From an uncultured SAR86 cluster bacterium (GTDB taxonomy: Bacteria; Pseudomonadota; Gammaproteobacteria; Magnimaribacterales; D2472): DNA of 64,000 nt. Below are positions 12,001 to 15,000 of the stretch, in pieces. Positions within the stretch are counted from its first letter, which is position 1; each line of letters starts with the position of its first letter. The position numbers are program-made. The stretch spans positions 18,459 through 82,458 of the forward strand of contig CACCNJ010000001.1 of assembly GCA_902547295.1 (NCBI GenBank), given 5' to 3'.

Positions 12001-15000
12001 AGAGCCTCAAAAACCTTCATACTGTTATTTTTTTGAAAATAAATTGAAACCTTTTTTGTTAAATTTTCTGACAGCCACTTTAGAGTTGGGAAATGAAGAT
12101 GATCAGGATGTTCATGAGATATCCATATGATATCAACATCAGAAATAGATTTCTTTATAGCATCTAAATTCGGCCTTGGATCAAGCTCCCAACCATCATT
12201 AAAAGCTGTACCAAAAAACCACGGATCCGTTAAAATTTTAGTATTATCGCTTTCTATAAGAATGCTTGCATGAGATATTAATGATATCTTTGAATAATTA
12301 TTTCCACTCATAAAACTTGCTCCAGCATTTAAGAAATGAGTTAATTAGCAACTAGTATACAGCGCTTGCATAACTATTCCCACTCAATAGTTGCACAAAA
12401 CACCACCTCTGAAACCCTTACTATGACAGTGTTTCCGAGTGCCCTTTTTGTGTAATACCACTTTGTCAAACTTTTATAACTCTATTGAATTTTTATTCAT
12501 TTTAAACTTCTTGCAAATTTTCTTACTTTTTGCATATGCTTTTCAAAGTCACTTTTTTCCATATTTGGAAGGACTGAATAGAATCTTAAATATTTTATCT
12601 TTAGTCCACCTGATTGAAATACAGACTTCTTTAGTCTCCTATAGGGAATATTATCGAAAAGAGAAAAATTAAAATAACTTACCATCGGTCCTCCATAAGT
12701 CATTGAAACAATACCAATTTTATTTTTCATTGCTCCAGCAACAGGATATCCATAATTCCCAAAAAACTTGCTATCAGGTAATAACGATTTGTAAGAAAAA
12801 AACCATGTTGGATGAAGAACCCAGTCAATCCAATTTTCTAGGACACCACTCATTCTTAAATTATGACAAGCACTCATTAAAAACATAACATCAGCATCTT
12901 CAAGTCTATTTCTATAATCTGTTACTAACTTTGGAGGTGGATTTATATCACTTCTATAAAATGGTAATTGTTCTTCTTCATCAAATAAATTAATCAAATC
13001 TATTTCATGTCCAATTTTTTTTGCTTCATCAATAAAGGCATCTCTCACGGATGCATTAAATGAATCTTTAGTATTGTAATGACCGAAAACTATACAAATT
13101 TTCATCTTATTCCCACTCTATAGTTGCACAAAACACCACCTCTGAAACCCCTACTATGACTGTGTTTCTGAGTGCTATTTCTTGATTTATAGACTTTGTC
13201 AAACTTTTATAACTCAAAATTTTTATTTCCTAAGTCTTTTGGATAGTTTAGGAGCATAAATATTTATACCCAAATAATTTCTTACAAAGTTTTGTCCGAT
13301 AATATAAGTTATACCAATTATTAAAATCCACCAAGAAATATCTTCTCTTACACAAAAATATATAAGTACACTGATGGCAACAAAATCAGCAATATTCATA
13401 AAAGCATCAATCCAAAAATATTTACTCTTACTCATTTTGTCACTCCCACTCAATAGTAGAACACCTCTGAAACCCCTTATTTGCAAGGTTCTGTAAATGG
13501 TGTGTCACATTTGTGTCATATGAATTATTCATTTTTTAATTTGTTTGTTTACCAACTTCATTTTTTCAAGATTTAAACCTTTTATATTCACTAAATTGCT
13601 AAAAATTGTTGCGAATAGTCGAATAGAATAATTTTCAACTTCATCAAGAAGGAAACTATATTCGGGATGAAGTTCAAAAAATAAAAACTGATCAAATTTT
13701 TCCATAGCAACTCTTGAAGAATTTTCTTTAACTCTATCACCAAAAGTATTTGCCTTTCCTACATAAATTTGATCATCATCTTTATTATTTAAGATGTATA
13801 TAACATTTGCTCTTGAAGAATATCTTTTCAGTTCTTTTTTAGGTATCCACCTATCAGAATAATCAATGAACAATTTGTCTTTCTTTTTAGATTTATTTTG
13901 GTCCTCATAGAATGCAAATAAATTTTTATCTTCTAAAAAATAAAACATCTGATCAAAATCTGTCTCTTGTTTAGAGATTACCTTGACTCTGAAGATGTTA
14001 TCTTTTTGATGAATAAACTCTAAAAGTTCTTTGAGTTTTGGTTTTGCTTTATTTCTTGTTGAAGCATAACTGTATATCATCAATTTTCTTATCTCTTTCA
14101 GAGTTTCTAATTCTCTGTCATAAAAAATTTGGACAACTTCTCTTTCTGGATATATTGTTTTCGATCTATTTTTTATTTTTCCCTTGTTGTTTATTCGTGC
14201 AATTCTTATTTTTGCTTTACGTTTTTTTCCATTTATTAATAAGATAATTTCTTTGAATTTTGTTTTTTCATTTAAATTAAAAAATTTTATATATTCTGAG
14301 TAAACTGCTTTTTGTAAAGTAAATCCCCAATGGAAAAAGTAATACCCAGGAACAACATAAAAAGAACTCAGTTTATTCATTCAATTATTATGCCATGCAC
14401 TTATGACTTTCAATAGTTCTTAAAGTGTGTCAGATTTGTATTTGTAAGATTTGGAAACCTGCATTCCTACATTGAAGTGACAAATTGTGTCACGCGTAAA
14501 CTACTGATATAAGGTAATTATTTCATTCCCACTCAATAGTTGCAGGAGGTTTGCTTGAGATATCATACACGACCCTGCTGACTCCCTCTATCTCATTTAC
14601 AATTCGATTCGATACATTTTCTAAAAAATCATATGGTAGATGTGCCCATTTTGCTGTCATAAAGTCTACTGTTTCAACAGCTCTTAAAGCAATCACTTCA
14701 GCATATCTTCTTTCATCTCCAACCACACCAACAGATTTAACAGGAAGTAAGACTGCAAATGCTTGGCTAATTTTTTCATATAATTCTGCTTTAATAAGTT
14801 CCTCAATAAAAATATTATCTGCTTGTTGTAAGATTGATATCTTTTCCTTTGTAATCTCACCAATAATTCTTACTCCTAATCCAGGCCCTGGAAAAGGATG
14901 TCTCTCAAGCATTTCTTTTGGAATTCCTAGCTCAATTCCGAGTCTCCTTACCTCATCTTTAAATAAATCTCTTAGGGGCTCGATTAGATCTAATTTCATT

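Follow-up and report, generated by a model that had tools for sequence, protein, structure and literature searches.

A cassette-borne GIY-YIG protein downstream of guaA in a SAR86 bacterium, a candidate single-gene restriction-type nuclease of marine bacteria and archaea

An array of small gene cassettes follows guaA in the genome of an uncultured SAR86 cluster bacterium, and its first cassette encodes a 283-amino-acid (aa) protein (13529..14380). Positions are those of the 64-kb stretch of contig CACCNJ010000001.1 that was analyzed, referred to here as the window, and all features of the window located below lie on its reverse (−) strand. Here, we report that this protein belongs to the GIY-YIG nuclease superfamily with its catalytic residues intact, that its gene is cargo of a cassette frame that carries other open reading frames (ORFs) in sister genomes, and that homologues occur in unrelated marine bacteria and archaea. 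We put at about one half the probability that the protein is a self-sufficient restriction-type defense nuclease, possibly one that depends on modified bases in its target. An earlier note on this DNA, made by reading the sequence, had described a GIY-YIG protein next to guaA and proposed several roles for it; its claims are taken up where the results bear on them.

An intact GIY-YIG nuclease domain at the C terminus

The protein consists of a probably B3-like N-terminal domain, a helical linker, and a C-terminal GIY-YIG domain (residues 189 to 283; 13532..13816), whose key residues are Y195, Y206, G208, R216, and E249, with N262 and N278 as candidates for the Asn. The peptide NVIYILNNKDDDQIYVGKANTFGDRV spans residues 192 to 217. 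Within it, VIY (193 to 195) takes the place of GIY, the motif Gly being Val or Ile, and YVG (206 to 208) takes the place of YIG; 10 residues separate Y195 from Y206, and 7 separate G208 from R216. Searched alone against Pfam, the window protein matched GIY-YIG (PF01541) over residues 193 to 256 at 20.9 bits (E = 4.4e-4), just below the gathering score of 22.6. The same model was matched by 24 of 25 close relatives and by 39 of 46 divergent relatives at E<=0.1 (best E = 1.5e-7), and one family member, P0234, passed the gathering score with 32.1 bits. Together with the comparisons below, these family-wide matches remove the doubt left by the subthreshold score of the single sequence. Matches to the Pfam models APOBEC_N, IL33, and Replitron_HUH were rejected as noise (E>0.003, inconsistent among members).

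Comparison with sequences of known structure gave the same assignment. A single-sequence search and a profile of the close family found no match among Protein Data Bank (PDB) sequences. A profile from the divergent alignment (46 sequences, down to 18% identity) placed three GIY-YIG nucleases at the top: T4 EndoII (2wsh; E = 0.0068), UvrC (1yd6), and I-TevI (1mk0). Alignment of this family with the I-TevI catalytic domain by hhalign (E = 2.9e-5) paired Y195 with Y6, Y206 with Y17, R216 with R27, and E249 with E75; of the I-TevI sequence used, two segments are confirmed by the PDB search output. Residues E118, W178, Y195, L197, Y206, G208, E249, and N278 are invariant across the 46 sequences, and R216 (>=90%) and I253 are nearly so. 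In an AlphaFold2 model built with the divergent alignment (mean predicted local distance difference test [pLDDT] score, 89.6), residues 191 to 259 adopt the beta-beta-alpha-beta-alpha topology of the GIY-YIG core, a three-stranded sheet with flanking helices, and the C-terminal domain gave weak structural matches to viral GIY-YIG endonucleases.

The motif and its spacing, the residue-for-residue correspondence with I-TevI (whose sequence is confirmed in part, as above), and the C-terminal position of the nuclease domain had all been read correctly in the earlier note. Of the checks that it proposed, structure prediction and homologue alignment of the catalytic Arg and Glu came out in its favor, and the Pfam profile matched the single sequence just below the gathering score. 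Its candidate Glu/Asn pair, located in LLDEVENYSIRLF, held up by half. E249 is invariant and corresponds to E75 of I-TevI, whereas the adjacent N250 varies among relatives, and its counterpart in I-TevI is N76 rather than N90, the metal-site Asn of that enzyme. Judging from conservation, the metal-site Asn is likelier to be N262, kept in most family members, or N278, present in all 46; the alignment to I-TevI ends at residue 258. We conclude that the 283-aa protein is a GIY-YIG superfamily member with intact catalytic residues.

A probable DNA-recognition domain at the N terminus

In the AlphaFold2 model, residues 1 to 136 (13973..14380) fold into a beta-barrel accompanied by two helices and by a basic loop, ARINNKGKIKNRSK, that is poorly ordered; they constitute a putative DNA-recognition module. 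The linker (residues 137 to 188; 13817..13972) contains helices at 143 to 151 and 154 to 161, a motif under strong conservation (QETDFDxMFxFLEDKNLF), and W178, which is invariant. When the N-terminal domain was compared with PDB structures by Foldseek, B3-type domains (plant B3 domains and the LlaJI.R1 N-terminal domain [NTD], 6c5d) headed the lists for two independent models, and the C-terminal domain of BfiI (BfiI-C; 3zi5) appeared further down; the scores were weak (probability, 0.75 to 0.96; E, 0.01 to 0.05; target-normalized template modeling [TM] score, ~0.5). A B3/EcoRII-N-like DNA-binding N terminus, as suggested in the earlier note, is thus plausible from the structural searches, with the weakness of their scores and the Pfam result discussed below on the other side.

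An exhaustive search of representative sequences found the N-terminal domain joined to other C-terminal regions elsewhere, including HNH nucleases (P0254, HNH_2, 3.7e-13; P0261, HNH, 4.9e-8); P0254 also matched the PADLOC HNH / Type II REase models at 1e-26. This shuffling provides independent support for a DNA-recognition module. From the models, the domain is probably a B3-like DNA-binding pseudobarrel, and it would bind DNA and direct the nuclease. The C-terminal module also turned up in an unusual setting: in the predicted protein P0204 (315 aa), the GIY-YIG module of the family follows an aldehyde-ferredoxin-oxidoreductase N-domain that is complete (Pfam, 1.3e-76). Insertion into a gene, an artifact of gene calling, or a chimeric contig could account for this fusion.

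The nuclease gene occupies the first cassette after guaA

The 3' end of guaA (GMP synthase; 14523..16088) serves as an attachment (att)-like core that anchors the cassette array. The window contains four copies of the 14-nucleotide (nt) core, ACTATTGAGTGGGA, where 0.29 would be expected by chance. The first copy forms the left junction of the nuclease cassette and encodes T-I-E-W-E in the last guaA codons (14527..14540), and the second forms the right junction (13444..13457). Two further cassettes (12378..13443) each close with a copy of their own (13111-13124 and 12378-12391). The cores thus delimit three co-oriented single-gene cassettes, encoding the nuclease, a 70-aa membrane protein (13223-13435), and a flavodoxin-like reductase (12497-13105). 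That the nuclease gene is the cassette nearest guaA agrees with the earlier note.

The frame of the nuclease cassette measures ~1.08 kb, bears a promoter-like sequence, and supplies guaA with its stop codon (TGA, followed by AATAA). Within the 5' leader (14381..14526) lie the inverted repeat GTGACACAATTTGTCAC (14477-14493; of the form GTGACA..TGTCAC), the motif ACAAATCTGACACAC, and, from 14413 to 14384, a promoter-like TTGAAA-18-AATAAT whose end is 4 nt ahead of the nuclease ATG. The 3' trailer (13458..13528) contains the tandem repeat ATGACACAAATGTGACACAC, followed by GGGGTTTCAGAGGTGTTCT; its order is ATGACACAAATGTGACACAC, GGGTTTCAGAGG, TTCT, and then the core. With the same two junctions, the nuclease cassette is found in three settings: after guaA in the window, after another cassette (L004/L006), and in L005/L007, where no guaA lies within 8 kb. 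At the far end of the L005 island that contains the nuclease cassette is a displaced guaA 3' end of ~75 nt (L005:12930-13003; ...SSKPSATIECE*), which may be an old terminus pushed outward by successive integrations. The contig L102 (83.8 kb) stops exactly at the guaA stop codon, as would fit assembly breakage at a hypervariable site.

The other cassettes have features of their own. An 87-aa ORF with a TTG start (13223-13486) crosses the core in front of the middle cassette; the likelier start is the ATG at 13435, which probably gives the 70-aa membrane protein. In most cassettes of the guaA arrays (window 12378-14540, L004, L103, and L107), the ATG lies 3 to 10 nt past the core, and these cassettes appear promoterless and integron-like. 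The 3' ends of the two neighboring cassettes (12375-12482 and 13108-13215) have ~108 nt in common, in one block of 73 nt (92% identity) and another of 23 nt (100%). Each forms a bulged hairpin immediately ahead of the core that folds better than shuffled sequence (z = −4.3 and −2.3) and is reminiscent of folded recombination sites. An attC-like folding of the nuclease cassette trailer was rejected, its z score (+1.0) being no better than that of shuffled sequence.

Cargo is exchanged within a constant leader and trailer

Sister genomes show the same synteny upstream of the array (xanthine permease, TonB receptor, phosphoribosyltransferase, guaB, guaA), and their GuaA proteins are 88-89% identical to that of the window; an exact look-up of the window GuaA itself returned no match. 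In these genomes, the first cassette after guaA encodes a ClpP-like protein of 355 aa (L103-L105) or consists of a ~3-kb multigene block that includes a SAD/SRA-domain gene (L107). The L103 and L107 cassettes share the ~146-nt leader and the trailer with the nuclease cassette (L103:9563-9709 and 10778-10851; L107:7588-7720 and ~10560-10626). Leader similarity in L103 reaches within a few nucleotides of the start codon, and trailer similarity resumes directly past the stop codon in both. Because sister arrays carry this leader and trailer around other cargo, the guaA hotspot works without the nuclease, and we regard the nuclease as more likely the swappable cargo of a cassette than the builder of the hotspot. 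The exchange of ORFs within a few nucleotides of the start and stop codons is seen in both L103 and L004. The SAD/SRA gene of L107 (9288-9647), which thus lies in the frame type of the nuclease cassette, encodes a stand-alone 119-aa protein with this methyl-cytosine-reader fold (Pfam E = 1.7e-21).

The heptamer TGACACA marks the frame. Four of the five copies in the window, all in sense orientation, fall in the ~215 nt of noncoding flanks of the nuclease ORF. The same repeats bracket other cargo in L103 and L107, and a nuclease-free cassette in L004 has repeat pairs of its own, GTTACAAAC, at both ends, so the heptamers are features of the cassette frame and are not specific to the nuclease. 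On the same observations, a candidate inner selfish insertion, in which 15- to 28-nt repeats around homologous ORFs would be target-site duplications or the ends of an element mobilized by the nuclease, was rejected. Avoidance of TGACACA outside the cassette, which would have pointed to the heptamer as the nuclease site, was not significant (1 copy versus 2.9-5.4 expected in 63 kb; 0 versus ~1 in L004 and likewise in L005). In lambda and L5 attP, heterobivalent tyrosine integrases use tandem repeat pairs placed on either arm of a core. By this analogy, the TGACACA repeats would be integrase arm-type sites; no integrase was found within 8 kb of the arrays in L004-L007, L103, or L107.

Homologues lie at variable sites in unrelated marine bacteria and archaea

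The nuclease family is small, with 198 representatives at E<0.001 among 1.84 billion. Its full-length members occur in many marine lineages. In SAR86 single-cell genomes, homologues at 72-73% identity lie directly after glmS or in an array with a glmS-terminus core. A complete genome of the Methylophilales (OM43) encodes one at 71% in an island that starts at tRNA-Arg and has an integrase; in "Candidatus Actinomarina" (65%), the gene is flanked by 50-nt repeats of the 3' end of tRNA-Ile, with no other gene between them; and in another gammaproteobacterium (69%), it follows tRNA-Met. Metagenome-assembled genomes (MAGs) of Thaumarchaeota carry homologues at 68%, 55%, and 45%, one of them between ordinary thaumarchaeal genes. 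Closely related genomes lack the gene at the same locus. Cross-domain identities of 45-73% point to recent transfer, and on these sequence comparisons the gene has spread horizontally across the bacteria-archaea divide, widely as well as recently.

Neither in the window nor in about a dozen further contexts (L001, L004-L013, L016-L021) does a methyltransferase lie next to the gene, so that an observation of the earlier note on the window extends well beyond it, and the adjacent cognate methylase of a Type II restriction-modification pair is absent. No homologue was found in 50,697 phage records or among the viral contigs of IMG/VR, and the window protein had no match in PHROGs. Two homologue contexts resemble defense islands: L020, with AAA_15, SNF2 helicase, and SLFN_AlbA_2, and L013, with HNH and a GHKL-like ATPase motif (the latter read by eye from the translation). 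Immediately downstream of the homologue in L010 (6835-7746) is a gene for a 303-aa protein with a T5orf172/GIY-YIG-like N terminus (GFIYIMSN...GRIKIGKS) followed by MORN-like repeats, as judged by eye.

A second array anchor, the glmS terminus, is used in the SAR86 single-cell genomes L008, L010, and L017, with ACCGTCGAATAA or ACTGTGGAATAA as the core; the nuclease ORF there starts a few to ~25 nt past the core, with no repeats. The glmS terminus is the neighborhood of Tn7 attachment in other bacteria. In at least six lineages (L011/L039, L042/L045, L016, L067, L081, and L026), 15- to 28-nt direct repeats bracket the homologous ORF; the upstream copies lie within ~60 nt of it (123 nt in L081) and the downstream copies within 30 nt. 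The repeats consist of two tandem 11-nt units that are lineage specific (CCCCTACTAAT, CCCCCTACTTT, CATTTACCACA, AACCGCACAAA, and ACGACCGCCAA), and they are probably arm-type sites of different integrases.

Discussion

A self-sufficient defense nuclease carried by a cassette is the reading that we favor. In it, the N-terminal beta-barrel (probably a B3-like pseudobarrel) would select DNA, and the GIY-YIG domain would cut it by one-metal chemistry with Tyr195/Tyr206, Arg216, Glu249, and an Asn. The gene would not move itself but would travel as cargo of the frame, which would integrate by site-specific recombination at the 14-nt core identical to the guaA terminus, with a recombinase presumably supplied in trans. 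The host would be safe because the target is absent from its DNA, for example a modified base, as for type IV enzymes; no methyltransferase would then be needed, and the presence of the gene in unrelated marine bacteria and archaea would be explained. Seen from the other side, tolerance of the enzyme in unrelated hosts without a methylase implies that the target must be absent from host DNA, and dependence on a base modification would be the simplest way to achieve this. We infer the defense role and the modification dependence from this reasoning. Of the three roles that the earlier note had considered, a self-safe antiphage nuclease in a hotspot is the candidate that fits the data best.

Several points weigh against this reading. 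The nuclease has no annotated homologue. PADLOC gave no strong match, only a marginal one (PDC-S14, E = 4.6e-4) over the GIY-YIG motif itself, and a scan of NCBIfam returned nothing. Most homologue contexts are not recognizable defense islands, and other cargo of the frame or array is unrelated to defense (the ClpP-like protein, the flavodoxin-like reductase, and major facilitator superfamily [MFS] transporters), so that location in a cassette is by itself no argument for defense. Finally, the B3-like assignment of the N-terminal domain comes from Foldseek matches with E values of 0.01-0.05, and no B3 or EcoRII-N model of Pfam matched the domain.

Among characterized systems, the type IV enzymes are the nearest in design. 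Combinatorial fusion of a reader with a nuclease is a documented hallmark of these enzymes, as in the winged-helix (wH)-GIY-YIG enzymes Ahi29725I and Apa233I (PMC11037411), and CMoRE/PD-T4-3 is a single-gene GIY-YIG type IV defense enzyme (PMC12923530). Like them, the window protein is a lone polypeptide that joins a putative sensing domain to a GIY-YIG nuclease, with no cognate methyltransferase and with shuffled readers (PMC11037411; PMC12923530): the gene is solitary in all contexts, and its N-terminal domain also occurs on HNH and HNH_2 nucleases. The order of reader and nuclease is that of the wH-GIY-YIG enzymes. However, the N-terminal domain is neither a winged helix nor the CMoRE sensor, and CMoRE has the opposite order, an N-terminal GIYxY-YIG followed by a C-terminal sensor of 5-hydroxymethylcytosine (5hmC), whereas the window protein has VIYIL without the third Tyr. 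On these features, the protein belongs to neither family. The B3-like restriction domains (EcoRII-N, BfiI-C, LlaJI.R1-NTD, and NgoAVII) include structural matches of the N-terminal domain, LlaJI.R1-NTD among the best of them, and are likewise joined to a separate catalytic domain, but their partners are PD-(D/E)XK, phospholipase D (PLD), or McrB-type, in systems that contain methylases, and the window domain resembles them with weak structural scores and no sequence-profile match. No fusion of a B3-like domain with GIY-YIG turned up in the literature searched, and the protein is a GIY-YIG nuclease whose N-terminal partner is apparently undescribed, from an uncharacterized marine family.

The cassette itself most resembles the units of additive flexible genomic islands, in which repeats of the target 3' end recur, as described for tRNA-Lys in the Methylophilaceae (PMC10872708). 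As in these and tycheposon-type islands, each cassette closes by repeating the final ~14-20 nt of the anchor, and content varies among close relatives (PMC10872708); copies of the guaA terminus stand on both sides of the nuclease cassette, and the content between them is variable. The guaA array differs in that its anchor is protein coding (as is glmS in other SAR86 genomes), in its mostly single, co-oriented genes, in lacking an adjacent integrase, and in that one guaA frame keeps its leader and trailer while its ORFs are swapped. Integron cassettes, which have an attC site (R''-L''...L'-R' with GTTRRRY) in the neighborhood of intI/attI, differ further: by inspection, ACTATTGAGTGGGA is not GTTRRRY, no integrase was found within 8 kb in L004-L007, L103, or L107, and the nuclease trailer folds no better than shuffled sequence.

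The nuclease could instead be a selfish homing-type endonuclease that cuts nuclease-free frames or the guaA terminus, with repair through the leader and trailer arms copying the ORF in, an explanation that we consider unlikely. The protein has the GIY-YIG and DNA-binding architecture of free-standing homing endonucleases; as in I-TevI and the free-standing Seg and Mob enzymes, the catalytic motif aligns, two domains are joined by a flexible linker, and the gene is often a lone insertion, Thaumarchaeota included. Precise exchange of the ORF between conserved leader and trailer in sister genomes would suit such an element, as would the repeats that tightly bracket the ORF in other lineages. However, the domain order is the reverse of that in I-TevI, Pfam shows no NUMOD, IENR1, or HTH modules, zinc-finger modules are absent as well, and the family is cellular, lying inside a core-bounded cassette, rather than in phages (or viral contigs), introns, or inteins. 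The repeats bracket nonnuclease cargo too (L103, L107), and the nuclease-free L004 pairs mark them as frame or arm features; the nuclease-bearing allele itself contains TGACACA sites. The insertion sites are wholly different among lineages (guaA, glmS, tRNA-Ile, and tRNA-Met), and the junctions are a shared recombination core. The version in the earlier note, in which cleavage of the guaA terminus drives cassette acquisition, is not supported: neighboring nuclease-free cassettes have the same junction core, sister guaA arrays without the gene hold other cargo between leader and trailer, homologues in other lineages lie at the 3' ends of glmS or tRNA genes, where the cores differ, and the phage and viral-contig collections searched contained no homologue.

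An accessory role in the machinery of cassettes or integrative elements has a still smaller chance of being right. Here, the arm repeats would be bound by the N-terminal domain, and nicks made by the GIY-YIG domain would assist excision, integration, or the swapping of cargo, either in cis or in trans. The concentration of TGACACA in the flanks of the ORF, the lineage-specific repeat pairs that hug it in several phyla, and the absence of an integrase near the arrays speak for such a role. Nevertheless, arrays and frames exist without the gene, which makes the role possible but unnecessary; the repeats differ widely by lineage while the protein is still 50-70% identical; the ORF in glmS-anchored SAR86 arrays has no repeats at all; and tandem pairs on both arms around a core are, as established for lambda and L5 attP, the sites used by heterobivalent tyrosine integrases. 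A domesticated housekeeping nuclease of repair or recombination (UvrC/Slx1/YhbQ-like), the last of the roles in the earlier note, is very improbable: UvrC has the same fold and is one of the best PDB matches of the family profile, but the family is small, patchily distributed, confined to variable sites that close relatives leave without the gene, and recently transferred between domains.

A bolder generalization, which we offer as speculative, is that the protein founds a family, as yet undescribed, of restriction nucleases that need a single gene and no help from the host (GIY-YIG with a B3-like reader, and HNH-bearing sisters) and that would circulate across the bacteria-archaea divide among abundant streamlined ocean microbes, in integrase-less frames of constant leader and trailer with swapped ORFs. 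In its radical version, the nuclease would promote the swapping by cutting frames that lack it, that is, by homing into a recombination cassette.

Few defense systems are recognized in the very small genomes of SAR86, OM43, Actinomarina, and marine Thaumarchaeota. A one-gene nuclease common to them at 45-73% identity would be direct evidence of a cross-domain mobile gene pool in the surface ocean and a candidate means of virus resistance in streamlined marine cells. Should the N-terminal domain prove to read modified bases, the enzyme might also find use as a tool, like other type IV enzymes before it. The cassette frame, with its constant promoter-bearing leader and trailer, exchangeable ORFs, junction at the guaA terminus, and no nearby integrase, may interest mobile-element biologists more than the nuclease itself. 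The cross-domain spread and the constant-frame cassette with swappable ORFs are the parts of these findings most worth following.

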